From Leptolyngbyaceae cyanobacterium (GTDB lineage Bacteria > Cyanobacteriota > Cyanobacteriia > Phormidesmidales > Phormidesmidaceae), in NCBI GenBank assembly GCA_965263355.1, contig CBDHHL010000056.1, forward strand, positions 544,001-608,000: a stretch of 64,000 bases of DNA, in the 5' to 3' direction. The first letter of the stretch is position 1. The number at the start of each line of letters is the position of its first letter. The notes below the pieces were generated by a model, which was not told where the DNA came from, searched no databases, and was given only the letters and a program-made list of their open reading frames with translations. Positions 1 through 36,328 of the stretch are shown piece after piece. Position numbers and translations under genes: made by a program.

Positions 1-249
1 AACAGGAATATCTTGAGTTTTCGGATTTTGCTTAAGTTTTTCACAAACCTCAAATCCATTCATTCCTGGCATCATTACATCCAGTAAAATCAGATTTGGT
101 ACGATTTTATCTAGTTTTTTAAAAGCGCTCTCTGCACTTTTTGCAACCGAAACCTTATAATTAGATTCCTGCAAAAACTCATAGAGAAGTTTGATGTTGG
201 TAGGAATATCATCAACAATCAAAATCTCACTTCGTTGGGAACTCAACAT
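1..249 (-). CDS. Response regulator receiver-domain protein, N-terminal part (runs off the window)
   Basis: Manual translation from ATG at 249: MLSSQRSEILIVDDIPTNIKLL...PNLILLDVMMPGMNGFEVCEKLKQNPKTQDIPV, a typical REC domain; not in the ORF track because it is truncated. Confidence 0.9.
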   Translation of the reverse strand, partial: MLSSQRSEILIVDDIPTNIKLLYEFLQESNYKVSVAKSAESAFKKLDKIVPNLILLDVMMPGMNGFEVCEKLKQNPKTQDIPV

Positions 250-379: not shown

Positions 380-3109
380 TTAAAGATTTAAATGGGGGCT
401 AACCAGCTGGACAATGCCTTCATCATCAAATTCATCAATCAGTTCCTGCAATTTGTTAACAAACTTTGTATAGTCTGGCCCCAACTTTTTAAGCTGAGCA
501 ACCTCGGTTTGAATATCTGAGATATAGCCTTTCTCAGCTGCTTCATAGAGAGGAATGAGTACGTTCGACGGTGGCACTATCATTTCAGATTCAGGATCAG
601 TTGGTACATTTTCAGTTTCAGGTTTTGGTTCATATTGCCAATCGAGTTGCAGCGTCTGCTGAAGCTGTTCTATTAATTCTTGTGCCTGTATTGGTTTAGC
701 TAAGAAGCTGCTGAATCCCATCTCAAGGCAGGCTTGTCGGTCAAACCCAGATAGATGGGCAGAAGAGGCAATAACCGGTACTGATTGGACCTCTGGCAAC
801 TTACGCAGCTGCTTAAATAAGCCATAGCCATCTAAATTAGGCATCAGCAAGTCTGTAATAATTAAATGTGGCAAAAATGATTGTGCTTTGGTCACCCCAT
901 CTTGACCATCCTTGGCTTCAATCAGTTCAAAACCAAGGGGATCTAAAAGGTTGACAATCACAGAACGATTTTCCCAACGATCATCAACCACCAAAATTTT
1001 TCTGCGTTTACCCTCATATCCAATTAACCGGCCTAACGTCTGCTGCTGAAGATCAGCCTGTATCCAGTCCTCTGCCAGGGGACAACATACTTTAAATTCA
1101 AAGGTACTACCCTCGCCCAGCACACTTTTAACCTGAATGTGGCTATCCATCAACTCTATAATCCTTTGGCTGATGGCAAGGCCTAACCCCGTCCCTTCAA
1201 TGACATGCTTAGTATTATCTGTCTGTTCAAAGGGGGCAAAAATTTTTTCAAGATTATCAGCAGCAATACCAATACCCGTATCTACAACAGCAAAATGAAG
1301 TCCTATCAATGCTGAATCATCCGGATCAGGTTGGACGCCCACCCTCAGGGTTACATTACCTGCTTCAGTAAACTTGACTGCATTACCAATTAGGTTTAGC
1401 AAAACCTGACGCAGACGTTTTTCATCAGCCACAATCCCCGGTGGTAGTGTATCAAGGGGCTCAAAAATGATAGGTAGTTTTTTCTGCTCGGCTCGAATAC
1501 GGCAAATTTCAACAACACCTTGCAAAAAAGAAGGAAAATGGAAGGGTTTAGGGTTTAGTTCTAGCTTTCGTGCTTCTATTTTAGAGATATCTAAAATATC
1601 GTTAATTAAGGTTAAAAGATGACTGCCACATTCGGCAATGGTCTGAATGCTGCTGCGATCTTTCTTGGAGCGATTTTTTTGAATTTGTAGAATTTGGGCA
1701 TAGCCTAAAATGCCATTTAGTGGCGTTCTTAACTCATGGCTCATATTGGCCAAAAACTCGCTTTTAGCATGGTTAGCCGTATCTGCAGCTTTCTTCGCTT
1801 CGGCTAACTGGGCAGTACGCTCAGCCACTCTAGTTTCTAACATTTCAAAGGAATCTTTGATTTGTTTGGCCATGCGATTAAACGCAGATGATAATCCCCG
1901 TAATTCTTGAATACCCTTGACCTGAAGCGTTTGCTCAAGGTCGCCCATGGCAATGGCTTGACTAGCCAGATTTAACCGCTGAATAGGAGTCGTAATCCAA
2001 CGTGATGTCAGTATTCCTAATAAAGTCGCAGTCATCAAAGCCGCAATGCATAACATGATGGTATTGCGGGTATTGGCATTAATAACTCCCATAAAATCAG
2101 CTTCTGGGATAGTCACCACCACTAGCCAATCTAAACCATAGTCATCTTGCCAGGGAACCACCTGAACAAACTGTCGCTCTCCGTCTATTCGAAAGTCTAT
2201 CTGTTGAATATTTTGAATATTTTCAAATCCCTTAAACTCTGTTTTTAGATGTTGAGCTGTTGCTCGAATTATTGGATCAGAACTGTTTAGGGCACTAAGG
2301 CGTTGGGTTTCTCCACCGGCAACGTTGTAAGTTTTGGCTTCGCTAGAATTTCCTATCAGTAGTCCATCTCGTTCGATCAAAAAGGCTTTGCCATTAGGAC
2401 TAATGTCTAGTTTTTTCAGAAAATTACTAATATCACTAAGCAGCAAATCAATACTAAATGCACCAAAAAACTTGCCTGTAGGCTCATATAGAGGAAACGT
2501 AGCTGATGCGGCGACATAGTCCTCAAATCCTTCTGCGGTGTAAATACTACTCCAGGTAGGTTTGCCTGCATTGACAGCATCGATATACCACTGGTCCTCT
2601 GGAGCATAGTACTCAGTTGCATCTAATACATCGGTGCGATTACCCTGAGTATCTGTACCATAGGTGTAGTCTTTCCCATCGGCTAATGAATGTTCTACTA
2701 TAGTGACGCCTTGACCTTCCAGCCAGCGTCCAGCTCCTACCCCTTCTCCTGACTCAAGGTAGTAGCCAATAAAATTGATATCTGGATAGGTTTCTGCCTT
2801 TTTCCATAGGTTACGCCCCATTAGCTCAAAATTCCTGATATCAACGGTTCCAGCCTGTAGCTCATCGACCGTTATAGTTCCCAATTCATGGGGAAGCGAT
2901 AGATAACTATCTAGATGTTGATCGACCCGATTACTAATTTCCTTACTAAGGCGCAAAACCAGGTCATTAACAGCCCTTTGGCTATTTCTAAAAGACAGGT
3001 ATCCAACTAACCCTACCGCTGAGAAAATTTGCAACATAAAGGGGACGACAAGCACAAGGCTTAAAGGCGTCCCACGGAGCGTTTGACGATCTTTGCTGTC
3101 CATAGCCAC
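380..3109 (-). CDS. Hybrid sensor histidine kinase (TM-dCache-TM-HAMP-HisKA-HATPase-REC)
   Basis: H-box [16 protein letters not shown]-box [11 protein letters not shown]-boxes DTGIG and GTGLGL, REC ILVVDD...DLLMP; two TM helices flank a periplasmic Cache region. Confidence 0.95.
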
Positions 3110-3348: not shown

Positions 3349-4119
3349 TCAAGAAGATTTAACTCCACATGCAAAGATAGTATAGAAGAACCCCTGGTCT
3401 GCATATTCAGGTAAATCTCTAACACGAATGTCAAGATTAACAAAGCCATTGTCTAAAAAACAATTCATTACATCCTGAGGATTTAGTTCCGTAGAGGGGA
3501 AACAGGTCTCCCCTACGCGATAATAATTGCCTGAACCACAGGCTGAAGTAATAAGGGTACCGCCAGGCTTCACCATGCCCATAATATTAGTCATGTAGAT
3601 ACGCCATTCCTCTTTATTAAGACTAATGCCTTCTGCGCAGTAATGGGCGGTTACCAATGGGTAAAAGTTACGTTTAGTCTCTCCTAGTGGATTAGCCTGC
3701 CTGACATCACCTGGTGTAACAAGAGTAACTTTTTGCCGTACTTCTGACTCCCTCTGTTGAATCTCTGAAGGGGTAGGGGTTTGATGTCCTTCAAGTTGCA
3801 GTACTTTTTGAGTAAAAGAATGCCAATCGTAGGCTGTTTTATCAGCAGAGAACCATTTTTTTAGTTCGGTTAAATTGGACTCAACATATTCAGAAACATG
3901 AATTTCTTGGGTTTTGGTCACCAAAGGTAAAATATGGGAGATAATGGGTCCACTACCGAAATCTAATGCCACCGGAACAGAATCGATGCGCTTTAAAGAC
4001 TCAGTCAAAAACTCCAAACAGTATTGTTCATCAGGCATGATACCTGAATAATATTCTTGTAAATACTGTTTAGGATCCCAATCGGAATAATTGGCGTATT
4101 TAATCTCAACAGCTTGCAT
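3349..4119 (-). CDS. NNMT/PNMT/TEMT-family SAM-dependent methyltransferase
   Basis: N-terminal WDPKQYLQEYY, SAM motif ALDFGSGP, AYDW and VKPGGTLI segments resemble the NNMT/PNMT family. Confidence 0.85.
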   Translation of the reverse strand: MQAVEIKYANYSDWDPKQYLQEYYSGIMPDEQYCLEFLTESLKRIDSVPVALDFGSGPIISHILPLVTKTQEIHVSEYVESNLTELKKWFSADKTAYDWHSFTQKVLQLEGHQTPTPSEIQQRESEVRQKVTLVTPGDVRQANPLGETKRNFYPLVTAHYCAEGISLNKEEWRIYMTNIMGMVKPGGTLITSACGSGNYYRVGETCFPSTELNPQDVMNCFLDNGFVNLDIRVRDLPEYADQGFFYTIFACGVKSS

Positions 4120-4172: not shown

Positions 4173-7100
4173 TTAACTAATATTGTCCAGATATTTTGCT
4201 AACAGGCAACTATCAATTGTTGGACAAGTAATATTGGATTGATTCAGGCCCTTTAGAGTATTTTGGCAATCAAACATTTGGGTGCCTGCTAACCAAATTT
4301 CTAATCGAGTAAGCGAATGTCCGTGCACAACTTCCGTCAAAATTTTAGCTAGTGGGCTGAGGGCGTTCTGCATTTTATTCAACTTAGTTTGCCAATGCTC
4401 ATAGGATACTTGTCTAACCGCATAGCCAACATTGTTAAGCTGATGGACAAGTTTATCTAACGGATAAGGGTAAGGATTTACTAGATGAAAAGCTTGATTC
4501 AAGGATTCTGTTTGCAATGATAGATGAACTATCGCTCGACTAACATAATCGACGGGTGTCATGTCGATTATCCAATCTAAATCAGGCGCACTTTCAAGCG
4601 CAATAACACTATTTAGAAAGCGGCTCATTAAATCTGTTGAGTTACATATTCCCGTTTGAGTGTGGCCGGTTACCATCCCTGGGCGATAGATACAAGCTGG
4701 AATACCCGCTGAAATCGCCCGTGTGATCAGCTGTTCTGCCACCCATTTGCTTTGGGCATAGCCGCCGACAATTCCAGATCCTTGGGCGATATTATCACTT
4801 TCATAAATAACCGATGGTCCCATGGTTAGCAATGATTCAAACACATCTAAGGTGGAGATGTAGTGAACGGGCTTAAGCCTATCATAGCTGGCAAGCTTTA
4901 ATATGGATTGAGTGCCCAGCACATTTGCCGCCTTTAAAGCTCCATAGGGGTAAAACAGATTCACACTTGCCGCACTGTGGTAAATGACATCTATAGTGTT
5001 AGCCAGGTGCTTAAATTGTTCTCTTTCTAGTCCCAAGAGAGGACGAGCTATATTGCCAATAAGGGGTTTGATTCTGCTGTAGGGAATATCAACATTTGGC
5101 AAATTCTGCTGTAGGGATTGACGTAATCGCTGATACCCTTCTGTAAGGGTTTGTGCCCGTACTAAGCAATAAACAGTAGCATCTGTATGTTGCAATAGGG
5201 TATGTAACAAGGAGGTGCCAATAAATCCTGTTGCCCCCGTTAATAAAATTGCCTTCGGATTTGTCCAATGTGATACAGGCTTTGACCAATGATTATATGA
5301 GGCAGCAGATGAAATCAGGTTAAGCGATGCTTCAGTCTCTAGTTCAGATAGAGACATATATTCTGTTATCGTAGAAGGCTTTCGGTCATGCTTTAATTGT
5401 TTGCCTACTAACTGTTTGGATAAATCTGCGATGGTTGGTTGCTTAAAGAAATCAGTAAAATTGAGTATTACTTTGAAAGAACGCTCAATTTGCGACATTA
5501 GCTGCATTACTCGTAATGAGTCACCACCCAACTCGAAAAAGCTATCATTAATCCCAATCGGTGAAATATTCAAAACATCTGCCCAAATACTGGCTAGTTT
5601 CTCTTCTTGAGCTGTTTCGGGTGCTACAAACAGAGCAGAGAGTTCTGGTCGGGACGAATCAGGTATAGGTAGCGCTTGTCGATCAATCTTACCATTGGCA
5701 TTGAGAGGAAAACTGTCTAACAGTACAAATGTTGCGGGCACCATGTACTTGGGTAGCTTTTGCATTGTATAGGTGCGCAGCTGAGTCGAAAGTGTATGGG
5801 CTATTTTGGCCTGGAGGGGATTATTGGCATAGGTATGCCAGACTTGACACGATGGTGGTGGGATGGGGGCTGGTAGTGGTTCAATACTCCCCAACTTATA
5901 GTCAACACCAGTGGCTTGGGGTTTAAACAGGGCATTAAAAGAACCATTATTGGCTAAACTGGGCCAGCTAATGGTCACATCGTAGGATAGCTCAGTCGCA
6001 AGCTGTTTGAGCGCTTCAGGATCGACGCCGACGATATTCTTAGTTTGCCTGAGATAATCTTTCAGATTAGCAACGTTACCAGAGAGTTGGATTTGCTTAC
6101 GTACATCAACAACACTGACATGGGGTAAAACTCTCGCATTAGGGATATTGCGAAAACCAAATACTTTGGTGGAGGAGTTCTTTAATCGTTGACGTAGTTC
6201 AGAAAAATCAGCATAGTGTGGCTGCCAATCTAACCAACGAGTTTCAAGTATGGATTGGGGCGTTGAGCCTACATGTAAGACAACGTCATAGCGAAATTGA
6301 CTTAGTTCATTATGAAATTGGCTTTGTTTCAGCAAAATTTGAACCTGGCTAATCTGGGGTAAATGCTTTTGCAGCGCCAAGAAAAAAGAAGGATCGATCG
6401 TGAGTTCTTCTTCTTGATATATCCTTTTCTGAATACGTTGCCAGAGTTCTGTGATGGGTAGGTCATCATCAGCATTGGCTAATTCTATAGCCGCTGCAAA
6501 TGCCTCTTGCAAGAGATAATTTCTGATGTCTCCGATAAACAGAGAACCCCCTGGTTTGATTAACCGTACAGCTTGTTCTATAACAGAAACTAAGTAATCA
6601 ATACTTGGGAAGTATTGTAAAACCGAGTTTAAGATGACCGTGTCATAGGAAGCAGGGGCTATATTTTCAAAGTTATCGGCAGCCCTATTTTTAAGGGTGA
6701 CTCGTGGTGCTAACTCTGGAGTCTTTGCCAACTGTTTTTTAATGTGGTCTAAAGAAACGTCTGATATGTCGGTGCCAATGTAGCTTTTACAGTGTGACAC
6801 TACTTGAAATAACAATAACCCTGTGCCACATCCCAGTTCTAAAACTCGTTCCGGCTTGAGTTGTAAGATTCGCTCAACAGTGGTGCTGACCCATTCCTGC
6901 ATCTCAATATCCGGCAGCAGCTCACCTGTGTAACTGCTGATCCAGCCACTGATGTTGAAAGTATCATCCCACTCTGTGTTGACTGTATTTAAGTGGTCAT
7001 CGTTATGAATTGCTTGCCATTGGTTGATTTGTTCTTGTTCTAGTTGGTCACGAATTGACCTGTCAGCAGTGGTGTTAGGGCAACTGCTTTGATCTGACAT

Positions 7101-8579
7101 ACAATGCTGCAAATGGCTTTTCACATAGGCAATTAACCGGTTACTACCCAGACTATCTGTTTGTGCTATAACAACAGCCTCTTGGACATCAGGATGCTGT
7201 GCTAAAAGAGTTTCAATTTCTTGTAATTCAACTCGAAAGCCTCGAATTTTAATTTGATTATCGGCACGCCCCAAAAATTCTAACTGGCCATCGTCACGAT
7301 AGCGAGCTAAATCACCCGTTTTATAGAGCCGGATAGCTTGTGTCTCTCCGTCTAAAGCAGTTACTAAAAACTTATTGGCTGTGAGATCAGCACGGTTTAG
7401 ATAGCCTGCTGCCAGGCTTCGTCCACTGAGATATAGGTCCCCTGAATTTCCCTGAGGGACTGGTTTCATACGCTCATCAAGAATATGGGCCTGAATATTG
7501 TTCAGGGGTTGTCCAATGGGAATACTTTCTCCGTGATTAAGCTTGATGGCATAGGGACCTGCTAGGTGACAATATGTAGCAACAACAGTACTTTCTGTTG
7601 GGCCATAGGTGTTTACCAACTGTACTTTAGGACTAACAAATCGTTGCCAGATAGTTACCCATTGGGGGAGTGCTCGCTCCCCACCAATAATGGTGAGTCG
7701 AATGGTTGAGGCTAAACCTAGGGTTTCTAGGGAGGCACACAATTGATGCCAAAAGGCAGTGGGTAAATCTAAAACAGTTATCTGTAACGTGTTGCATGCG
7801 TCAAGAAAGTCTGGCATTGACTTGAGCATGTTTTCATCACGGAGCACCAATGTAGCCCCTTGGGTAAGCGTTAGAAAGATTTCCTCAATGGCGGCATCAA
7901 AGCTAATTGATGAAAATTGCAATACGCGATCGCATGCGACAACACTATAGGCCTGGTTGGCTGAATGCACAAAATTTGACAACGCCCTCTGGTCTACCAT
8001 GACACCTTTAGGTTTACCTGTTGAACCAGACGTATAAATGACGTAAGCCAAATGGTCTAAAGTAGGCAACGATATGGGGTTATGGTCTGGCTGTTGGGTA
8101 ATAAGGGGCCAATCGGTTTCCAGGCAAATCAGTTTTGCTTTATGGGTTGGGAGAGCTGAAGCTAGAAATTGTTGCGTAAGTAACAATGAGACTTGAGAAT
8201 CTTCTAACATCCAGTCAAGACGCTCTGAAGGATAGCCAGGGTCCAAAGGAACATAGGCTCCACCTGCTTTCAGGATAGCTAATACCCCCACAATCATTTG
8301 AAAGGAGCGTTCAAGGCATAGACCGACCAATACGTCTGGACCGACACCTTGCTCACGTAAATAATGAGCAAGCTGATTTGCATAGGCATTTAATGTTTGA
8401 TAGCTCCAACATTGCCCCATAAACTCAATTGCCGGGGCTGTAGGCCGTTGCAGAACCTGAGATTCAAATAATCTACAGACAGATGCTGGGTTCTCAGCAG
8501 AAACAGTCAGGAGACAATCCCTAAAGTTGGTAAAAACCATGTATTGATTTCCCTCAAATACTGATAGCAGGTTTGACAA
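4173..8579 (-). CDS. Stand-alone NRPS-like enzyme: adenylation, embedded N-methyltransferase, thiolation and terminal reductase domains (A-NMT-T-R)
   Basis: A motifs YTSGSTGKPKG, YGPTE, YKTGDL, NGKIDR; NMT VLELGCGTG and LNSVLQYFP; T GGDSL; R LTGATGFIG and YAQSK; no C domain. Alternative ATG start at 8540. Confidence 0.95.
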   Translation of the reverse strand: MSNLLSVFEGNQYMVFTNFRDCLLTVSAENPASVCRLFESQVLQRPTAPAIEFMGQCWSYQTLNAYANQLAHYLREQGVGPDVLVGLCLERSFQMIVGVLAILKAGGAYVPLDPGYPSERLDWMLEDSQVSLLLTQQFLASALPTHKAKLICLETDWPLITQQPDHNPISLPTLDHLAYVIYTSGSTGKPKGVMVDQRALSNFVHSANQAYSVVACDRVLQFSSISFDAAIEEIFLTLTQGATLVLRDENMLKSMPDFLDACNTLQITVLDLPTAFWHQLCASLETLGLASTIRLTIIGGERALPQWVTIWQRFVSPKVQLVNTYGPTESTVVATYCHLAGPYAIKLNHGESIPIGQPLNNIQAHILDERMKPVPQGNSGDLYLSGRSLAAGYLNRADLTANKFLVTALDGETQAIRLYKTGDLARYRDDGQLEFLGRADNQIKIRGFRVELQEIETLLAQHPDVQEAVVIAQTDSLGSNRLIAYVKSHLQHCMSDQSSCPNTTADRSIRDQLEQEQINQWQAIHNDDHLNTVNTEWDDTFNISGWISSYTGELLPDIEMQEWVSTTVERILQLKPERVLELGCGTGLLLFQVVSHCKSYIGTDISDVSLDHIKKQLAKTPELAPRVTLKNRAADNFENIAPASYDTVILNSVLQYFPSIDYLVSVIEQAVRLIKPGGSLFIGDIRNYLLQEAFAAAIELANADDDLPITELWQRIQKRIYQEEELTIDPSFFLALQKHLPQISQVQILLKQSQFHNELSQFRYDVVLHVGSTPQSILETRWLDWQPHYADFSELRQRLKNSSTKVFGFRNIPNARVLPHVSVVDVRKQIQLSGNVANLKDYLRQTKNIVGVDPEALKQLATELSYDVTISWPSLANNGSFNALFKPQATGVDYKLGSIEPLPAPIPPPSCQVWHTYANNPLQAKIAHTLSTQLRTYTMQKLPKYMVPATFVLLDSFPLNANGKIDRQALPIPDSSRPELSALFVAPETAQEEKLASIWADVLNISPIGINDSFFELGGDSLRVMQLMSQIERSFKVILNFTDFFKQPTIADLSKQLVGKQLKHDRKPSTITEYMSLSELETEASLNLISSAASYNHWSKPVSHWTNPKAILLTGATGFIGTSLLHTLLQHTDATVYCLVRAQTLTEGYQRLRQSLQQNLPNVDIPYSRIKPLIGNIARPLLGLEREQFKHLANTIDVIYHSAASVNLFYPYGALKAANVLGTQSILKLASYDRLKPVHYISTLDVFESLLTMGPSVIYESDNIAQGSGIVGGYAQSKWVAEQLITRAISAGIPACIYRPGMVTGHTQTGICNSTDLMSRFLNSVIALESAPDLDWIIDMTPVDYVSRAIVHLSLQTESLNQAFHLVNPYPYPLDKLVHQLNNVGYAVRQVSYEHWQTKLNKMQNALSPLAKILTEVVHGHSLTRLEIWLAGTQMFDCQNTLKGLNQSNITCPTIDSCLLAKYLDNIS

Positions 8580-10021: not shown

Positions 10022-13000
10022 CTACACGATGTTGGTAAAGCTACTTTCTGTTAGGTTTTCTGTAGCTACCCCCTGCAATGTTGCTAAGACGCCATTGTCA
10101 ACAATGATGTCATTGCCAGCAAAGGTGAGCTGATTAAAGCTGAGACCACTGGACAAACTAATTAGATCGATACCCACCTTAAAGTCGGTAATAGTATCGA
10201 TACCGCTACCTACCATCAGGACAAAGGTGTTATAGCCCTGACCACCAGCAAGAACATCATTGCCAGCCCCACCGTCTAGGACGTCGTTCCCCGTCCCGCC
10301 AATCAACATATCGGTACCGATACCGCCTTTTAAGGTGTCGTTACCAATGCCCCCTTGGAGGAAGTCGTCGCCACTGTTGCCAAACAGCAAGTCGTCGCCC
10401 ATGCCACCCTTGACAGTGTCATGATCACCACCTCCCTTGAGGGTATCCTGACCCTGGCCACCAAACACCTTGTCGTTGCCAGTGCCTCCCTTAAGCTGAT
10501 CGTTACCGACACCCCCATCCAGGTCGTCGTTACCGTCTCCACCGTTGAGGATGTCGTTACCAATGCCCCCCTGGAGAAAGTCGTCGCCACTGTGACCAAA
10601 AAGTCGGTCGTCGCCCATGCCGCCCTTAACGGTGTCATCGCCACTACCCCCTCTAAGGGTGTCCTGACCCTGACCGCCAAACAACGTGTCGTTATCAGCA
10701 TTTCCTCGAAGCAGATCATTACCGGCACCACTATCTAAATTGTCGTTACCGTCTCCACCTCTTAAGGTGTCGTCACCAACACCATCTTTGAGAACATCGT
10801 CGCCCGTGCTACCCACAAGCAGGTCATTGCCGGGGCCACCCCTTAAGGTGTCATTGCCACCCTGACCGTGAATAATTTGGTCACCTGGGCCACCCACAAT
10901 GGTGTCGTCAGCATTAGTCCCCATAATGGTTTCTGCTGCCTCAAACAGCGGTATTACCTGGCCACGAATTGCACCGGGCGTCTTCAGTGCATCAGACTCG
11001 ACAGTGTGAATCTGAATGTAGAGTTCACCGGCTTGCAGTTCGTCAAGAAAGTCGCTGAGGGGCTTTGTTTCAGGATCGTCATCGGTATCGCCGTCGCCAT
11101 TCAGGTCAGTGGCATCGGCATCATTCCAGATACCGGTGATAATGCCGTTCTCAAAGTCAACAACAAGATTGTCGTCATCCTCACTGGGTAAGCCAAAAAT
11201 ATTTAAGGTATGGGGTCCATTTTCACCTTCGGGCCCCAAGTGTAAATGAATGCGCGTGACATCATTGGCTTCGGTGCGGCTGGCACTATCTTCCTTGAGG
11301 GCTAACCCTTCAAGCTTAATCTGATAGGCTAGGCCGCTGCCATCTTCTGCCAAGATAAATGTAGCGGTTGCACCTGCAGTGGAGTCAGGAATAGCGTCAT
11401 CTTGAACAACCTGTTCACCATCGGCTACCAGGGTAAACACGTCTGCTTTTAGGGGTGGCTCAATCTGACCACGAACACCACCAAGGATGCCTAATCTATC
11501 AGATTTCGCATCGTGGATTTGAACATAGAGGTCACCTGCCTCTAGCTCATCTAAAAAGTCGCTAAAGGCCTTAGATTCAGGACCATCATTGGTGTCACCG
11601 TCGCCGTTCAGGTCAGTGGCATCATCATCATCCCAAAAACCTTTGAGAATACCGTTCTCAAAGTCAACTTCAAGATCGTTGTCATCTTCACTGGGAAGAC
11701 CAAAGATATTTAAGGTATGGGGACCATTTTCACCCACAGGCCCGCTATGGATATGAATCTTGGTGACATCATTGTCCTCAGTACGGCTGGTCGGATCTGC
11801 TTTGAGGGTTAAACCATCAATGTCGATCTCATAGGCCAGGCCGTCTTTAGTGCGCGTAAAGCTAGCCTTGGCAGTGGCGGTCGAATCAGGAATAGAGTCA
11901 TCTTGAACAACCTGTTCACCATCGCCCACTAGCGTAAAGTTATCCACTTCGTCGATGGGGATAATCTGACCACGGGCACTGCCTGGGGTACCCAGTCGGT
12001 CGGATTCAACATCGTGGATTTGGATATAAAGATCACCGGCCCGCAAAGCTTCCAGAAACTCATTGAGGGGTTTGGATTCGGGACCGTCAGCGGTATCGCC
12101 ATCACCGTTGAGGTCTCTGGCATCATCGTTGTCCCACTGACCGGTAATGATCCCGTTCTCATAGTCCACTATGAGATTGTTGTCATCTTCGCTAGGCAGG
12201 CCAAAAATATTCAGGGTGTGGGGACCATTGGCACCGCGTTCACCGGCATGGATGTGAATACGAGTGACATCGTTGTCTGCGGTCCGATCGTCGGGGTTTT
12301 CCTTGAGGGTGAGATCATTGAGTTTGATTTGGTAGGCCAAGCCGCTGCCGTCTTCTGCCAGAATAAAGGTGACGGTAGCTGTGGCATCACTATCGGCAAT
12401 GGCTGGATCTTGAACGACTTGGGGACCGTTTGCGATCGCAACAAAAACCTCCTGCGTCGACGCCATTGGTTTAGTCACCGATGGATCCAGCTGGCCCCGC
12501 ACAGTACCGGGAGTACCGAGCTGATCGGTAGCCACATCATGGAGCTGCAGATAAAGCTGCCGCGCTTTTAACTCATCAATCAGCTGGCTTAATGGTTTAG
12601 TCTCGGGCGGATCATCGGTATCGCCATCCCCAGTTAGATCAACGGCATCATCATCTCCCCAGACACCAACAATCACGTTCTGTTGATGGTCAACCAACAA
12701 ATTATTGTCATCTTCGCTAGGAAGACCAAAGATATTCAGGGCGTGGGGACCGTTTAGACCTTCGGCCCCCTGATGTAGGTGAATCTTAGTAACATCATTA
12801 TCTGCCGTGCGCTTGGCAGGGTCCGCTTCCAGATTTAGGCCATCCAGTTCGATTTGATAGGCCAGCAGTTCCCCATGCTTAAGGGGCGTAAATGTCGCTT
12901 TTGCTGTAGCCGTGGAGTCAGGAATAGACGACGGTTGAACTACCTTGTCACCTTCAGCTAGCAGGGTAAAACTGTTGTCAGATTTGAGGGGCGTAATCTG

Positions 13001-13537
13001 TCCCCTAACTACACCGGGGGTACCCAGCTGGTCCGATGCCACATCGTGTACCTGGATGTAGAGTTCGCCTGCGTCTAAGGCGTCAAGAAATTCGCTTAAG
13101 GGTTTGGATTCAGGGTCATCATTGGTGTCACCATCGCCATTGAGATCCTTGGCATCCCGATCTTGCCAGATACCTGTGATGATGTTGTTTTCATAATCAA
13201 CGACCAAATCGTCGTCATCTTCACTAGGCTTACCAAAAATATTCAGGGTATGGCCACCATTAGTGCCGGGAGCCCCGACATGGAAATGAATCTTAGTAAC
13301 GTCGTTGGCTTCGGTGCGGCTAAGGGGATCTGCCTTAAGATTCAAACCATTGAGTTGGATTTTATAAGCTAACCCGCTATTATCTTCCGCCATAAGCAGT
13401 GTGACGATGGCAGTAGCGGTGGAATCAGTGATGGTTTCATCTTGCACCACCTGCTCCCCATCAGCTAGTGCAAGAAAGGCAGGTGTGGATTTATCTATTC
13501 CTGAAGGAGCTAGGCGATCAGTCATGGGTTCTAACAA
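10022..13537 (-). CDS. Secreted protein with five tandem CHRD domains and C-terminal RTX calcium-binding repeats
   Basis: Five repeats of IHxHxG...LY[IVL]Q[VIL]H...RGQ; many GGxGxDxLx nonapeptides; terminal DTITDF...D.I.L segment typical of type I secretion substrates. Likely ATG at 13525. Confidence 0.88.
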   Translation of the reverse strand: MLEPMTDRLAPSGIDKSTPAFLALADGEQVVQDETITDSTATAIVTLLMAEDNSGLAYKIQLNGLNLKADPLSRTEANDVTKIHFHVGAPGTNGGHTLNIFGKPSEDDDDLVVDYENNIITGIWQDRDAKDLNGDGDTNDDPESKPLSEFLDALDAGELYIQVHDVASDQLGTPGVVRGQITPLKSDNSFTLLAEGDKVVQPSSIPDSTATAKATFTPLKHGELLAYQIELDGLNLEADPAKRTADNDVTKIHLHQGAEGLNGPHALNIFGLPSEDDNNLLVDHQQNVIVGVWGDDDAVDLTGDGDTDDPPETKPLSQLIDELKARQLYLQLHDVATDQLGTPGTVRGQLDPSVTKPMASTQEVFVAIANGPQVVQDPAIADSDATATVTFILAEDGSGLAYQIKLNDLTLKENPDDRTADNDVTRIHIHAGERGANGPHTLNIFGLPSEDDNNLIVDYENGIITGQWDNDDARDLNGDGDTADGPESKPLNEFLEALRAGDLYIQIHDVESDRLGTPGSARGQIIPIDEVDNFTLVGDGEQVVQDDSIPDSTATAKASFTRTKDGLAYEIDIDGLTLKADPTSRTEDNDVTKIHIHSGPVGENGPHTLNIFGLPSEDDNDLEVDFENGILKGFWDDDDATDLNGDGDTNDGPESKAFSDFLDELEAGDLYVQIHDAKSDRLGILGGVRGQIEPPLKADVFTLVADGEQVVQDDAIPDSTAGATATFILAEDGSGLAYQIKLEGLALKEDSASRTEANDVTRIHLHLGPEGENGPHTLNIFGLPSEDDDNLVVDFENGIITGIWNDADATDLNGDGDTDDDPETKPLSDFLDELQAGELYIQIHTVESDALKTPGAIRGQVIPLFEAAETIMGTNADDTIVGGPGDQIIHGQGGNDTLRGGPGNDLLVGSTGDDVLKDGVGDDTLRGGDGNDNLDSGAGNDLLRGNADNDTLFGGQGQDTLRGGSGDDTVKGGMGDDRLFGHSGDDFLQGGIGNDILNGGDGNDDLDGGVGNDQLKGGTGNDKVFGGQGQDTLKGGGDHDTVKGGMGDDLLFGNSGDDFLQGGIGNDTLKGGIGTDMLIGGTGNDVLDGGAGNDVLAGGQGYNTFVLMVGSGIDTITDFKVGIDLISLSSGLSFNQLTFAGNDIIVDNGVLATLQGVATENLTESSFTNIV

Positions 13538-17594: not shown

Positions 17595-19208
17595 GTGAAT
17601 CCAATTCAGATCGCTACCTGGGATGAGGTGCCCGATCGTCAGCCGATGGCTGCGATCGCAGAGGGCGTTGATCTCGTCATTGTGCGTTGGGACGATAATG
17701 TTTCTGTTCTTTATGGTCGCTGTCAGCATCGCGGTGCCCTGATGGCCGATGGCTATATTGAAGGCGACAATATTATCTGCGGTGTTCACCAGTGGGACTA
17801 TCGCTTTGACAGCGGCGTCAGCGCCTATAGCAACGACGAATATTTAGATAAGTTCCATGCCTGGGTAGAGGACGATGGCGTATTTGTGGATGCCGCTGAA
17901 ATCATTGCCTGGAAGGAAGACCATCCCCAGCCCTATGATCGCGATGCCTACCAGGGAGCCTATGCCGATATCCATGGCACCATAGAAGAACCCCACACTA
18001 AACTCATTCACGAACTAGCCGCCAATGGCCTAAGTAAAACCGGACACCACGGCCCGGTAGCCGCCATGGGTGTTCCAGGTCCAGAATTGCCCCGTTGGGA
18101 GAATCTACAGTTTGTCACTGCACAGCTGGCCCGATTGCCCCAGTTAGAAGAGATTCCCGTGGCAACAGAGCTGGTGATTGGTCCCCGAGCCAAGCAGCCC
18201 CTCAAGTTAGACATGCCCATTTTTGTTTCAGACATGAGCTTTGGAGCCCTATCAGAAGAGGCTAAGATCGCCCTGGCTAAAGGTGCAGAATTAGCGGGCA
18301 CTGGCATCTGTTCTGGTGAGGGGGGCATGCTACCAGAGGAACAAGGTAACAACAGCCGCTACTTTTACGAATTAGCCTCTGCCCGATTTGGGTTTTCCTT
18401 GGAGAAACTGACACAGGTGCAGGCATTCCACTTTAAGTGTGGTCAGGGGGCTAAGACCGGCACAGGAGGACACCTGCCTGGCCATAAGGTAAAAGGCAAA
18501 ATTGCAGAAGTGCGGGGCCTGAAGGAAGGAGAACCTGCCGTTTCTCCACCTCGTTTTCCTGACTGGGAATCTGTTGAGGATTTTCGCAACTTTGCCGCAA
18601 CAGTGCGGGATATAACAGGCGGTATTCCTATCGGGGTCAAACTATCTGCACAACACATTGAGCAAGATATTGAAGCCGCTCTCCGCATTGGAGTGGATTA
18701 TATTATCTTGGATGGTCGTGGGGGTGGTACCGGTGCGGCTCCGCTGATCTTCCGAGATAACATTTCCGTGCCAACAATTCCAGCCCTGGCACGGGCAAGA
18801 AAATATTTGGATCAGCGCGGTGCCAGTCACGTCACCCTGATTATTACCGGCGGCCTCCGCACCCCTGCAGACTTTACCAAGGCCCTGGCCCTGGGTGCAG
18901 ACGGTATTGCTGTATCCAATGCGGCGATTCAGGCCATTGGCTGTTTGGGCATGCGGGCCTGTCACACCAACAATTGTCCGGTGGGCATTGCTACCCAGAA
19001 AGAGAATTTGCGATCGCGCCTGATCATCGACGATGCGGCCCTACGGCTGCAGCGATTCTTCAATGCCTCGGTGGAACTTATGCAGGTACTTGCCCGTGCC
19101 TGTGGTCATACCCATCTCAATCAGTTTTGTCAGGATGACTTAACCACCTGGGATCGAGAAATGGCCTACCTTGCAGGTGTTAACTATGCCGGTGTGACGC
19201 CATTGTAA
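17595..19208 (+). CDS. Rieske [2Fe-2S] domain fused to an FMN-binding glutamate-synthase-like domain
   Basis: Rieske CQH...CGVH; MSFGALS, SGEGG, GQGAK, DGRGGGTG; [3Fe-4S] motif CLGMRACHTNNCP. Confidence 0.92.
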   Translation: MNPIQIATWDEVPDRQPMAAIAEGVDLVIVRWDDNVSVLYGRCQHRGALMADGYIEGDNIICGVHQWDYRFDSGVSAYSNDEYLDKFHAWVEDDGVFVDAAEIIAWKEDHPQPYDRDAYQGAYADIHGTIEEPHTKLIHELAANGLSKTGHHGPVAAMGVPGPELPRWENLQFVTAQLARLPQLEEIPVATELVIGPRAKQPLKLDMPIFVSDMSFGALSEEAKIALAKGAELAGTGICSGEGGMLPEEQGNNSRYFYELASARFGFSLEKLTQVQAFHFKCGQGAKTGTGGHLPGHKVKGKIAEVRGLKEGEPAVSPPRFPDWESVEDFRNFAATVRDITGGIPIGVKLSAQHIEQDIEAALRIGVDYIILDGRGGGTGAAPLIFRDNISVPTIPALARARKYLDQRGASHVTLIITGGLRTPADFTKALALGADGIAVSNAAIQAIGCLGMRACHTNNCPVGIATQKENLRSRLIIDDAALRLQRFFNASVELMQVLARACGHTHLNQFCQDDLTTWDREMAYLAGVNYAGVTPL

Positions 19209-19259
19209 CTAGACTCGAATTAATTATTATCCCCCCGCTGTCTAATCAGGAGAACGTTT

Positions 19260-21212
19260 ATGTCCATCGCATCCCAATGGTTTAAGGTACTCGATTTAGA
19301 TGAACTGCCTGAAGGTCGTGTTAAAACCGTGACTGTGGGGCATAAAAGTCTCGCCATGACCCATTACGACGGGCAGTATGGCGCTCTGGATAATCGCTGT
19401 CCCCACCAGGGGGGACCGTTAGGGGAAGGTTCCATTGAAAATGGTTATCTGCGCTGTCCCTGGCACGGGTGGGACTATTGCCCTCTCACCGGTCAACCCC
19501 CCGGCGATCTGGACGTAGATGACGCCCTGGAAACATTTCCCGTGGAGGTCCGCACCGACGGTATATATGTCGGCATAGCAGACGAACAGGTCCACAGTCG
19601 CACCGTCACCGATGTCATGGCGGAAACCCTGGTGAACTGGGGGGTTACCCATGTGTTTGGCATGGTGGGCCACTCCAATCTGGGGCTGGCCGATGCCCTG
19701 CGTCGCCAGGAAGAACAGGGCAAACTCACCTTTATCGGCATTCGCCACGAAGGAGCTGGGGCCTTTGCCGCATCTGCCTATGCCAAACTCACCGGACGGC
19801 CCGCTGGGTGTCTTACCATTGCCGGTCCTGGAGCCACTAACCTACTGACCGGCCTGTGGGATGCCAAGGTGGATCGCGCTCCCATATTGGCCCTGACGGG
19901 ACAGGTCAGCACTCAGGTATTGGGCACTGGCAACTTCCAGGAATGCGATTTGTCTGCCGCCTTTAGTGGAGTCGCGGCCTGGAGCCAGACGGTACTCAGC
20001 CACAGCAAGCACGCAGAACTAATGACCCAGGCAGTCAAACATGCCCTGCTACAGCGGGATGTAGCCCACCTGATTTTCCCGGACGAAATCCAAACAGAAC
20101 CCGCTGCTCCGGAAGCCACTGCCTCTAGCCCCACAGGCAGACTTACTCCGTTGCAGATTGCACCGCCGCCTGACTCCCTGGCCCAGGCAATTGAGCAACT
20201 CAACGCGGCAAAACGCCCCGTCATTATCGTTGGCCACGGTGCCCGGTTCACCATGGAGCCTATCATTGCCCTGGCGGAAATGCTCAACGCTCCTGTGTTG
20301 ACCACCTTCAAAGGTAAGGGGCAAATCTCCGACCATCATCCCCTGGGCTGTGGCGTATTGGGACGCAGCGGCACCCCCATCGCCTCCTGGTTTATGAATG
20401 AGTCGGATCTGTTGTTGGTCTTTGGGGCCTCTTTCTCTAATCACACTGGCATTTATCCTGGTATGCCCATTATTCAGGTGGACTTTGACCCGCTGGCATT
20501 GGGCAAGTTCCATCCAGTGACGGTGCCCGTATGGGGAGAGATTAGTATTGTGGTGGAACAGCTCCGTTCTGCGCTGGCAGACGTTACCAACACAGAAGAC
20601 CAGCGATCTGAAATTGCAGAACGCTGGGCTATCTGGAGAGAAGAAAAGAAACGTCGGGAAGACGACGATCGCGGCAATGGCATCAACTCCGCTGCAATTT
20701 TTGCGGCCATGACTCGTCAGGTGCCTGCCAATGCGGTGATTTCAGTGGATGTGGGCAACAATACCTATTCCTTTGGTCGCTATTTTGAATGTGAGGCCCA
20801 GTCAGTCTTAATGTCAGGCTATTTAGGCTCCATTGGTTTTGGTTTTCCAGGGGCTATGGGTGCCTGGGCAGCGGCTGGTCATGAGCGGCCCATTGTTTCT
20901 GTGTCTGGAGATGGTGGCTTTGGCCAGTATATGGGCGAGTTTACTACGGCAGTGAAGTATGGCATGAATATTACCCACATTCTGTTGAATAATAGTGAGC
21001 TGGGTAAGATTAGTAAGGAACAACGGGCCGGGGAATGGGATGTCTGGCAAACGTCTTTGCATAACCCTAGCTTTGCTGAGTTTGCCGAGATTTGTGGCGG
21101 TAAAGGAATTCGAGTAACTGAGAAGTCGGCGTTAGATGAGGCGATTTCTGAGGCGTTGGCCTATGATGGGCCTGCCATTGTTGAAGTGGTGGCGGATGTA
21201 AATCTGATTTAG
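19260..21212 (+). CDS. Rieske domain fused to a ThDP-dependent pyruvate oxidase/acetolactate synthase-like enzyme
   Basis: Rieske CPH...CPWH; RHEGAGAF with catalytic Glu, GPGATN, ThDP motif GDGGFGQ...LLNN. Confidence 0.92.
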   Translation: MSIASQWFKVLDLDELPEGRVKTVTVGHKSLAMTHYDGQYGALDNRCPHQGGPLGEGSIENGYLRCPWHGWDYCPLTGQPPGDLDVDDALETFPVEVRTDGIYVGIADEQVHSRTVTDVMAETLVNWGVTHVFGMVGHSNLGLADALRRQEEQGKLTFIGIRHEGAGAFAASAYAKLTGRPAGCLTIAGPGATNLLTGLWDAKVDRAPILALTGQVSTQVLGTGNFQECDLSAAFSGVAAWSQTVLSHSKHAELMTQAVKHALLQRDVAHLIFPDEIQTEPAAPEATASSPTGRLTPLQIAPPPDSLAQAIEQLNAAKRPVIIVGHGARFTMEPIIALAEMLNAPVLTTFKGKGQISDHHPLGCGVLGRSGTPIASWFMNESDLLLVFGASFSNHTGIYPGMPIIQVDFDPLALGKFHPVTVPVWGEISIVVEQLRSALADVTNTEDQRSEIAERWAIWREEKKRREDDDRGNGINSAAIFAAMTRQVPANAVISVDVGNNTYSFGRYFECEAQSVLMSGYLGSIGFGFPGAMGAWAAAGHERPIVSVSGDGGFGQYMGEFTTAVKYGMNITHILLNNSELGKISKEQRAGEWDVWQTSLHNPSFAEFAEICGGKGIRVTEKSALDEAISEALAYDGPAIVEVVADVNLI

Positions 21213-33496: not shown

Positions 33497-35188
33497 TTAT
33501 TCCCCAAAGGTATCAACCTGAGACTGTTCCACCAGAATTACAAAAATTGTCTCTAGACCATTAGAGAATCGCAGCGTATTGACCAAATCGTGCTCAAGGT
33601 CAATCGCTGAGTCAACGATAATCATATCGGGCCTAAGGGCCAGTGCCTTTTCAATTCCGTCTTTGCCCGTAGCCGCTTCAGTTACGGTATAGCCCCGTCC
33701 CAGCAAAACCTGCGTCAAATTTTGGGTGGTGGCAACATCCATATCCACCACCAACACTTTGCGATTTGACATGCCCTGGTCTAACAAGGTTCTAATATCA
33801 TTGAGCAATAACTCCGTATCGATGGGCTTGGTTAAATAGCGATCCACCCCCAAACGGTATCCTCTTTCTTGATCTTGAATAATCGAGAGAATAATGGTGG
33901 GAATGCCCATAGTCGCCGGGTTATTTTTAAAGACAGCGGCTAAGTCAAAGCCATTGATGGTGGGCATCATCACATCCAAAATGATTAGATCCGGTGTTTC
34001 TGCCTTCACCTGGTTGAGGCCATCCATGCCATCCTTGGCAGTTCTAACCTGGTAGCCAGACGCCTCTAATTCCTGGCGTAGCAACTGGCGAATATGGGGC
34101 TCATCATCAATGACCAAAATTGTTTTATGAGATTTTTCTGTTGGGGTTACGGCGCGATCAACATTTTCTTTTAGTTGTTGTATCAGGGATTGCCAGTCGG
34201 CATTAACCGCCCTACCTGCTTGGGCCATATGGATTGGTAGGGAAAAGGAAAACGTGCTACCCTGCCCTAGCTCGCTTTCCGCCCAAATGCGTCCATTGTG
34301 ATGGTCGATAATTTGTTTACAAATGGGTAATCCCAGCCCAGACCCCTTTGGTTTATCGGTCATTACTTCCCCCACCTGGACAAATTTCCCAAACACTTTT
34401 TCTAGATCATTCTCAGAAAGACCAATGCCCGTATCAATAACGCTGACGACAATTTCGTTATCTTGTTGATAGGCGCGACAGGTGACAGAGCCCCTATCAG
34501 TAAACTTAGTAGCATTGGACAACAGGTTAATTAACACTTGAACCAGGCGGTTGCGATCTCACAGTACCTCTGGCAACCCTGGTTCAAACTCACAAATCAT
34601 ATCTAAACCAATGGTTTGAACCAGCACAGATGTGGCCGAAATCGCCTGGTTAATCACCGCTGTAATATCAGTCGGTTGCATATTCCAGTCGATTTTGCCA
34701 GCTTCAATTTTAGAAATATCCAATACATCCTTGATCAAGGCTGTCAGACGCTCACCCTCAGCCACAATGATGCCAAGGTTGTCACGGACCTGTCGTACCG
34801 CTCGCTCAGTCTTTTTGGTTTCAGTAGTTACAGCCGGTAGTATCGTATCTTCCAGCTTTTTTTGGATCAGTTTTGCAAACCCTAAAACTGAGGTGAAGGG
34901 CGTCCGTAACTCATGGGAAACCGTAGACAGAAAGTCGGTCTTCATCCGCGCCACTTCTTTCTCAGCCGTCATATCCCGAATCAAAACCACCACACCATTT
35001 GACTGATTTGGGTCCGAATTAGATGTAGTTTTAGTATCTTGCGTCAGCAGTAACGTACCATGGCTAGATTTCAGCAACTGACGGGCCTCTTCCAACACCA
35101 GAGACGCCACTTCTTGAATCTCTGGGCAATTAATAATCTTTTCTGACAGCTTAAACAGCAGGAAAATTTCCTTATACCTACCCAACAA
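33497..35188 (-). pseudogene. Hybrid histidine kinase (HisKA-HATPase-REC-REC) with in-frame stop and probable internal deletion
   Basis: SHELRTP; PEVL*DRNRLVQVLINLLSNA with TGA at 34559-34561 in frame; a GAF-like start joins directly to a PAS C-terminal VVVLIRDMT. Confidence 0.85.
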
Positions 35189-35215
35189 CTCCTTTGATTA
35201 AAAATGCATTAGCCT

Positions 35216-35242
35216 GTAGGGGCAATCCCTTGTGGATTCCCT
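35216..35242 (+). repeat. REP-like palindromic repeat
   Basis: GTAGGGGCAATCCCTTGTGGATTCCCT; inverse copy at 53987-54013. Confidence 0.75.
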
Positions 35243-35284
35243 GCGATTCGACAGGATTTCGCATTAGCTTTCCCTCAGCTTACT

Positions 35285-36328
35285 CTATTTCTTTGCGTTC
35301 CGTTTAGCATCCTCTAGCCACTTGTCAAAAGTGCCTTGGTTATTACGAACCCATTCTTCTGCATGGCGACGAATATCCTCAGGACTGTTCTCTCCATCCC
35401 GCATACGTTGATTTTGTAAGCTGACATCTGTGATAGGAATATTAACTACCTCAAACCATCGAGCAATGTCTGGATGAGCCCGTAAAAACTGACGATTTGC
35501 TAAAATTTCGATCTGATTAACTTCAAATCCAAGATTTTTACCATCAACAATAGAGGCATTTGCCTGAATGCCAACAACAGGTACATCTAGCCAGACAACA
35601 TCCTCATCTGGAACTAGAACACCACTCACCCATAAGGGAGTCCATGTGTAGTACAGTACTGGGTTGCCTTCGTCATATCGCTTGATAGTTTTCTCCATCA
35701 AGGCAAAGTAGTTCTTACTATCATGTTCTACAGTGCTTCGCAGGTTATAGTTATCGAGATGGGATTCAATTACGTCTCGACACCCCCACCCTGGTGGGCA
35801 ACCAACTAAGTTAGCTTTGCCATTACCATCTGTGTCAAACAACTTAGCATTTTCTGGATTTCTCAAGTCTTCTAAACTATTAATGCTGTTATTAGTTGAT
35901 GTTGTTTTATCAATCAGATAGCCCTGTAGAGCATTGTCAATTAACGGATTGACTCGTTTCAATTTTTCGTGTCCTCCATTATCTTCAAAGAAATTTCGGT
36001 GGAGAGGATTCCAATGAACAGCTGTGTAATCTAGATAGTCACGGGCAATGGCTTGATGAATAACATCATATTCTAGCTCAGAACCAGCAATTGGGTTATA
36101 TCCTAAGGACTCTAAACCGATATTAATTACTTCAGTTTGAAACAGTTCCTCTAAAGTTGCATAGGCTGAGCGAACGACCTTATCTGAACTGACTAACGAT
36201 ACATTTTCATTGGTAAGATTGCGGCAGCCAGTCAATAAGGTTAAGGCACTGAGTGCTCCCAAAAGTAAAGACCACCGCTTAACTAAGTCGATAGCATAAC
36301 TTGATGAATTAGGCAATAAATGTTTCAT
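35285..36328 (-). CDS. proX: Glycine betaine/proline ABC substrate-binding lipoprotein (ProX family)
   Basis: Lipobox LLTGC, QGYLIDK, LFDTDGNGKANLVGCPPGWGC, YYTWTP. Confidence 0.9.
   Translation of the reverse strand: MKHLLPNSSSYAIDLVKRWSLLLGALSALTLLTGCRNLTNENVSLVSSDKVVRSAYATLEELFQTEVINIGLESLGYNPIAGSELEYDVIHQAIARDYLDYTAVHWNPLHRNFFEDNGGHEKLKRVNPLIDNALQGYLIDKTTSTNNSINSLEDLRNPENAKLFDTDGNGKANLVGCPPGWGCRDVIESHLDNYNLRSTVEHDSKNYFALMEKTIKRYDEGNPVLYYTWTPLWVSGVLVPDEDVVWLDVPVVGIQANASIVDGKNLGFEVNQIEILANRQFLRAHPDIARWFEVVNIPITDVSLQNQRMRDGENSPEDIRRHAEEWVRNNQGTFDKWLEDAKRNAKK

Follow-up and report, generated by a model that had tools for sequence, protein, structure and literature searches.

The hybrid histidine kinase encoded at the beginning of the window, the 64,000-nucleotide stretch of a Leptolyngbyaceae cyanobacterium analysed here, is fairly likely to be the receptor half of a pherotype-like signal synthase-receptor cassette, whose signal in this organism would be a methylated lysine-derived diamine. 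The sequence-level basis consists of the gene order, the domains and pocket residues, the conservation of the cassette, and the finding that, in relatives, the type of synthase and the pocket of the sensor change together; the quantitative evidence for this co-variation comes from a sister receptor clade, not from the clade of the window. Amine-binding dCache domains, NRPS-derived signals, and A-T-R-R amino-alcohol synthases are already known; the finding is the family of matched synthase-receptor cassettes rather than a single substitution in the sensor domain.

Gene organization of the cassette

The genes of the cassette lie on one strand in the order A-MT-T-R reductase, variable tailoring gene, dCache kinase, and REC-kinase (Table 1). 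The reductase has no condensation domain, and its SAM motif, T-domain Ser motif, and NAD(P)H and YxxxK motifs are intact. Its A-domain pocket code, D-A-E-D-I-G-T-V-V-K, contains two acidic pocket residues and is of the basic-amino-acid type; we take it to be a lysine code. A literature search for the pocket codes returned no relevant paper. The closest solved A core found by structure search was ApnA A1 (E 3.6e-49), which according to PMC8402340 activates Arg and Tyr, so that Arg or Orn may be the substrate instead. Overall, a basic amino acid is predicted as the substrate with about three-quarters confidence, and the chances that it is lysine are even. Close copies of the NNMT-family gene (81–86%) were present in 6 of 172 genomes, every one inside this cassette. 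A promoter and terminator scan gave no excess over shuffles (14 vs. 24.5 and 6 vs. 8.2, respectively).

Table 1. Features of the window cassette and of its predicted receptor
Feature	Position	Strand	Evidence
Hybrid histidine kinase, predicted receptor	380..3109	−	dCache_1-HAMP-HisKA-HATPase_c-REC by domain search
dCache_1 sensor domain, residues 42–340	2090..2986	−	Pfam PF02743, E 8.8e-13
Distal-pocket motif Y167-x4-D172-x-W174 ... Y190 (E193) ... D221 of dCache_1	2447..2611	−	Sequence and PctA alignment
Y167 codon	2609–2611	−	
D172 codon	2594–2596	−	
W174 codon	2588–2590	−	
Y190 codon	2540–2542	−	
D221 codon	2447–2449	−	
Stand-alone NRPS-like reductase A-(MT inserted)-T-R, 1468 aa, predicted synthase	4173..8579	−	Pfam
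NNMT/PNMT/TEMT-family methyltransferase, predicted tailoring enzyme	3349..4119	−	PF01234, E 3e-37; NNMT structure, E 6e-24
REC gene, 5′ end, cut by the window edge, predicted next relay step	1..249	−	REC-HisKA-HATPase kinase in relatives; homologous position in L001 and L047

Sensor domain and its distal pocket

The sensor ORF encodes 909 aa and has a GTG start. According to the sequence, hydrophobic segments flank the dCache domain in a pattern typical of an extracytoplasmic sensor. A structure prediction, which had been proposed as a check, yielded a confident dCache fold (AlphaFold, pLDDT 96.3); the model superimposed on PscC with Z 22.4 and rmsd 3.2 over 242 aligned residues. The original prediction described in this domain an amino-acid-binding motif with the carboxylate-binding Arg replaced by Asp, and this was confirmed. 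All five residues are present, with Y190 (in SSIY) at W+16 and D221 (in FSID) at Y+31. In a profile alignment of 38 related domains with PctA (YDPRSRPWY), D172 fell on the R126 site, Y190 on Y144, and D221 on D173, and E193 adjoined PctA D146 with a one-residue insertion. The distal-pocket motif is not due to chance. By homology, the side chain of D172 would face into the pocket.

In PctA, the ligand's carboxyl moiety is held by Y121, R126, and W128 and the amino group by Y144 and D173; affinity falls 61-fold with R126A, and binding is lost with D173A (PMC8915833). Loss of the R126 equivalent disfavours the binding of ordinary amino acids, and in this respect the proposal of a cationic ligand without a carboxylate is supported, but the substitution is no mark of a synthase, as shown below. 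The fold and the best sequence matches are common to the window domain and the dCache_1AA sensors (PctA, PscC, Mlp24/37; PMC8915833). Equivalents of Y121, W128, Y144, and D173 are kept as Y167, W174, Y190, and D221; R126 is replaced by D172, and a second-shell acid, E193, is added.

The original prediction also relied on the existence of amine-sensing dCache domains, and these are indeed described as dCache_1AM (bioRxiv 10.1101/2023.04.06.535858) and as TlpQ (PMC6234866). The dCache_1AM class (PctD, PacA, McpX, 3LIB) shares with the window domain the loss of the R126 charge and the retained amino-binding Asp. It is defined, in the same preprint, by an insertion with R103/D133, by W155 and other residues such as M215 and S217, and its first Tyr and Arg are not conserved; unlike it, the window domain retains a counterpart of Y121, and its top-ranking matches are amino-acid sensors. 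In a profile search, the window domain matched PscC and PctA at 1e-13 and McpX at 5e-7, and PctD, PacA, and 3LIB were absent from the matches at E 0.01. The structure scores were close (PscC, Z 22.4; PctD, Z 21.3), and hhalign of the window domain against the dCache_1AM-like sister clade covered residues 129–297 only. The dCache_1AM residues F188/Y189 and D235 are matched by W174/Y175 and D221, which are common to the amino-acid motif and hence not diagnostic. By sequence, the window domain appears nearer to the amino-acid sensors than to dCache_1AM, and its sensor is likely a separate derivation.

The polyamine/histamine receptors TlpQ/McpU (PMC6234866) resemble the window domain in their acidic pocket and in the +16/+31 spacing, W192, Y208, and D239 of TlpQ being spaced as W174, Y190, and D221 (PMC6234866, PMC7584622). 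They differ from it in having D210 at Y+2, where the window domain has A192 followed by E193 at Y+3, in overall structure (14% structural identity), and in being chemoreceptors for outside compounds without a tie to a synthase. AI-2 binding by dCache_1 domains needs all of R126, W128, Y144, D146, and D173 (PMC7584622), and the window domain has Asp at the R126 site. Fold searches scored amino-acid, amine, and polyamine sensors no more than about 3 Z units apart and did not separate the ligand classes; an ESM Atlas search gave generic dCache clusters. An amine is quite probable as the ligand of the window sensor.

Distribution of the acidic residue

Asp or Glu occupies the Arg site in 208 of 269 homologues, namely the 119 nearest listed and the best 150 of 4,290 cluster representatives. 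The nearest 119 (120 homologues listed of 1,544 found, minus the protein of the window itself) comprised 116 acidic sequences (77 D, 39 E), three with another residue, and none with Arg; among the best 150 representatives, 92 were acidic (78 E, 14 D), 29 had Arg, and 29 had other residues. An acid at Y+3 accompanies the acid at the Arg site, being found in 169 of the 208 acid-type homologues vs. 0 of the 29 Arg-type ones. The cyanobacterial dCache subfamily around the sensor includes 1,391 representatives at E 1e-30.

All 11 sensors with a stand-alone reductase within 2.5 kb have Asp (out of 56 distinct related sensors in the fetched loci). The remaining 45, without such a reductase, have Glu in 27, Asp in 5, Arg in 10, and other residues in 3 cases; this set counts in L148 and L099, and 11 of its Glu rows are near-identical orthologues. 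The original prediction, which tied the substitution to the NRPS neighbour and was to fall if the substitution proved common in homologues lacking synthase genes, does not hold on this point: the acidic residue occurs in 32 of the 45 sensors without an adjacent synthase, and Asp as a cassette-specific mark is ruled out. The Arg-to-acid change marks, by sequence, a large cyanobacterial sensor subfamily. The change is probably older than the cassette, an existing sensor subfamily having been recruited. This acid-type subfamily, which is not clearly the published amine family, probably binds amines.

Conservation of the cassette in relatives

From 80 sensor matches, 20 were fetched (20 of the top 24). 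A reductase was adjacent in 12 of the 13 sensors with at least 60% identity (the window, L001–L005, L047, L087, L089, L090, L147, and, across a scaffold break, G449); in the exception, L148, a SET gene lies beside the sensor, and a reductase of the basic type is found at a distance of about 75 kb. No reductase was found in the 18 fetched stretches around sensors with 50% identity or less. The predicted tailoring gene encodes an NNMT-family enzyme in the window, L001, L003, L005, L047, L087, L089, and G449, and a HalD-like halogenase plus SET pair takes its place in L004 and L090, the two cassettes with the code DTEDIGGVVK; L002 and L147 have no tailoring gene. HalD-like halogenases and SET proteins act on Lys/Orn. 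The downstream genes in relatives encode REC-kinases or, in some, REC-GGDEF/EAL proteins.

Seen from the enzyme side, four of six stand-alone A-MT-T-R enzymes in a 401-genome sample of the phylum adjoin a dCache kinase (one of them being the search centre), as do 5/5 further ones in the 172-genome order. Stand-alone reductases without a kinase beside them were found at L048, L049, L080, L082, L083, and L180–L183, which speaks against the synthase-receptor reading, as do the 5 of 20 close sister-clade sensors with no reductase nearby. L088 was rejected as a kinase-less case, its frame stopping at a run of N with the remaining cassette on another scaffold, and NRPS frames of about 1,450 aa partly matching the query were dropped as extra A-MT-T-R enzymes, being mostly C-A-T-R terminal modules. 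A metagenome scan gave three loci, one a copy of L004. In the R-domain tree, where the short duplicate loci L017–L046 were wrongly labelled "nosensor" (L018 = L047), most cassette R domains fell into one clade (0.985) together with several non-cassette enzymes, and two Pro-type ones fell outside.

Several other gene arrangements were observed in these loci. At L184:7114-12974 (G406), the genes immediately upstream of a related dCache kinase (46%), which has Gly at the Arg site, encode a methyltransferase, a PLP-dependent decarboxylase, and an NNMT (48%); this set would provide another way of making an N-methyl amine next to a sensor of the subfamily. At L186:4155-10653 and L187:9147-15251, genes for an NNMT (30%) and a Rieske oxygenase lie upstream of those for a dCache hybrid kinase and a REC protein, and this may be a further cassette of the synthase-receptor kind. 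An Ala-type A-T-R enzyme without an MT domain lies upstream of a third, unrelated clade of dCache hybrid kinases at L188:3826-11591 (G833). At L099:2-10522, a Gly-type C-A-MT module, a separate T-R protein, and a flavin amine oxidase lie upstream of a related dCache kinase. The Gly-type A-T-R enzyme at L082:9218-12916 carries two PilZ domains at the usual place of MT insertion, which suggests c-di-GMP control of the synthase; L083:7095-10787 is alike in length and code. At L151:5949-10408, a terpene synthase gene is divergent from an acid-type dCache kinase.

Co-exchange of synthase and sensor parts

Ten cassettes were compared within the clade of the window, leaving out L089, L148, and G449. 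The sensor of L002, which has no NNMT, is 55–67% identical to that of L005, and the A, MT, R, and kinase parts are 82–91% identical. Residue 127 is Gly in NNMT-type sensors and Gln in L002, L004, and L090; L147, without NNMT, has Gly. The L005/L002 swap is a single block explicable by one recombination and therefore weaker evidence than that from the sister clade. The co-variation of synthase and sensor in the window clade is only suggestive.

An enzyme of this kind also lies ahead of the kinase gene in L050 and L051, but the dCache kinase is a different one there and represents a second clade whose profile best matches the dCache_1AM structures 3LIB, 3LI8, and PacA. We fetched 40 of 61 matches, some loci stopping at contig edges, and found a reductase adjacent or one gene off in 15 of the 20 closer loci and in none of the 20 weaker ones. 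The A pockets of this clade are Gly-, Ala-, or Pro-type or one of two Gly-like variants, the substrate names being our assumption from the pocket codes. For these non-basic codes, pairwise BLAST readings were off-register and remained unused, and Gly/Ala position 278 was taken from a separate reading. All four Pro-type A domains beside sensors are without an MT domain, which would be expected were a secondary amine required as the product. In some sister cassettes, a short-chain reductase lies upstream.

The sensor tree of the second clade largely groups by A type. Since such grouping is explicable by kinship, 17 intact cassettes (the split L111 excluded) were divided into segments. The nearest neighbour was of the same A type for 14 of the 17 distal modules, compared with 6/17 for the proximal module, 7/17 for the kinase, and 9/17 for the R domain. 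The partial Mantel correlation of the distal module with the A core, given R, proximal module, and kinase, was r = 0.40 (p = 0.0003; 3,000 permutations, kinship ignored), and that with R was −0.36; the proximal module correlated with R (0.36, p = 0.012) and hardly with the A core (0.07, p = 0.26). The distal modules of L113, L115, and L116 (3/17) do not follow the A type.

Pairs of cassettes at the same locus show how such exchange may proceed. L109 and L113 differ in two divergent islands, the A core (47–72% DNA identity) and the first 200 residues of the sensor (61–68%), which lie about 2.7 kb apart with DNA at 82–99% identity between them. The two-island pattern is repeated in L108/L115, and the control pair L109/L107, of the same A type, shows no such dips. 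In L117/L114, one block from the A core through the distal module was swapped, with flanks at about 95–99%. In the second clade, the predicted signal-specifying part (A core) and the predicted signal-binding part (distal module) co-vary apart from lineage.

These data bear on the possibility that the sensor responds to an amine or polyamine from the environment and controls the synthase or unrelated genes, the co-change resulting from linkage alone. The subfamily is mostly found without a synthase, the pocket spacing is like that of TlpQ/McpU, and the swaps in the window clade are single blocks, all of which would suit an environmental sensor. Linkage, however, predicts that the distal module tracks the R domain or the proximal module; it tracks instead the A core about 3 kb off, and two same-locus pairs have separate islands. 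We consider an environmental sensor unlikely.

Predicted signal and its reception

Under the preferred synthase-receptor reading, the substrate of the A-MT-T-R enzyme would be a basic amino acid, most likely lysine, which the enzyme would activate and N-methylate and whose carboxyl group it would reduce, giving an aldehyde or alcohol (or perhaps a cyclic imine); another methyl group would come from the NNMT-family enzyme. The diamine so formed, having no carboxylate, would be bound in the acidic distal pocket of the sensor, D221/Y190 presumably contacting the former alpha-amine and D172/E193 the second cation, and the sensor would feed a phosphorelay that continues with the REC-kinase or else, in certain relatives, with the REC-GGDEF/EAL proteins. 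The idea that the ligand is a diamine made by the neighbouring enzyme is thus retained as plausible, given the basic-type A pocket with its two acidic residues, but the link between sensor and product is supported by the co-exchange across cassettes and not by the Asp itself. We regard it as likely that the sensor binds the product of its own cassette, and a role in cell-to-cell communication with strain-specific signal types as slightly better than an even bet.

The sensor could also bind the cassette product as feedback on a private metabolite such as an osmolyte, a nitrogen store, or a cell-envelope modifier. Methylated amines are typical osmolytes. A dication would need an exporter, and domain search found none in the window cassette, which counts against signalling and suits a private metabolite; fungal A-T-R-R enzymes make choline (cited in PMC13194791). 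Feedback of this kind would nevertheless leave several interchangeable chemical types at one locus without a clear reason, and it fits poorly with a dCache domain placed between hydrophobic segments as in extracytoplasmic sensors; we give it a low probability. An allelochemical or deterrent product (e.g., a reactive amino aldehyde or halogenated amine), with the kinase triggering self-protection or detecting competitors, would match the variable tailoring (NNMT; HalD + SET; none) and the type switching of an arms race, but it is improbable, as no resistance or transport gene is conserved in the cassettes and the downstream genes are REC-type regulators.

For the synthase-receptor reading, a wider proposal can be made, though tentatively and with somewhat less than even confidence. 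Filamentous and unicellular cyanobacteria would share a family of cassettes for kin recognition or quorum sensing. In these, an NRPS-like reductase encoded by one gene would supply an N-methyl amino alcohol or aldehyde, derived from Gly, Ala, Pro, or Lys according to type, and the reader would be a dCache hybrid kinase; such kinases would have been recruited from different sensor clades on at least three occasions. The type would be switched by joint exchange of A core and ligand module, the window representing the Lys-diamine type; further dialects may exist in the cassettes with decarboxylase-NNMT and with NNMT-Rieske genes.

Relation to known signalling systems

Synthase and kinase are adjacent in agr, comQXP, CqsA/CqsS, and RpfF/RpfC, and in two of these, agr and comQXP, a conserved kinase core is combined with signal-determining and signal-binding parts that vary in step. 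The cyanobacterial cassette has neither synthase nor sensor homology to these four systems, and its predicted signal is a small methylated amine. As in pherotype systems, the adjacency of synthase and receptor is conserved (12/13 close sensors and 15/20 close sister-clade sensors); co-variation apart from lineage was found in the sister clade only and is suggestive in the window clade.

The NRPS enzymes of Pvf/Ham/Mgo are reductase-terminated. Their products (valdiazen, leudiazen; PMC10194917) are, like the signal predicted here, small molecules derived from amino acids by an NRPS-type enzyme, but the chemistry involves an N-oxygenase and the hosts are Proteobacteria, whereas the window cassette is cyanobacterial. 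The Pvf receptor is left for future study in PMC10194917; in the window cassette family, a candidate receptor is adjacent and co-varies. The A-T-R1-R2 enzymes (fungal ATRR; diatom PtNRPS1, leading to tryptophanol; PMC13194791) likewise perform condensation-free NRPS-like reduction toward an amino alcohol, and the PtNRPS1-type product regulates growth in diatoms (PMC13194791). They have two R domains, whereas the window enzyme has one R domain and an inserted MT domain, a linked receptor, and several substrate types in its family.

Within the open literature, with most subscription journals and bioRxiv supplements outside the search, we found neither this cassette nor the cyanobacterial subfamily with the acid substitution described. 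The cassette family likely marks an undescribed, strain-specific chemical signalling system. To our knowledge, few cell-to-cell signalling systems have been defined in cyanobacteria. If the proposal is true, signal chemistry, synthase, and receptor are named for one such system, and the predicted ligands are simple compounds: N-methylethanolamine for the Gly type, N-methylalaninol for the Ala type, and prolinol for the Pro type.

Other genes in the window

At 33497-36328 (−), a gene for an OpuAC betaine-binding protein precedes a kinase that is divided between a HisKA frame and a HATPase-REC frame; this may be a quaternary-amine sensor that is broken or split. The 1171-aa protein encoded at 10022-13537 (−) combines five CHRD domains with RTX calcium-binding repeats, and neighbouring Rieske-glutamate-synthase-domain and Rieske-TPP-enzyme fusion genes are located at 17595-21212 (+). 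The region 42080-63411 (+) is occupied by an exopolysaccharide cluster, which encodes an ABC transporter and many glycosyltransferases and includes three sulfotransferase genes in tandem.
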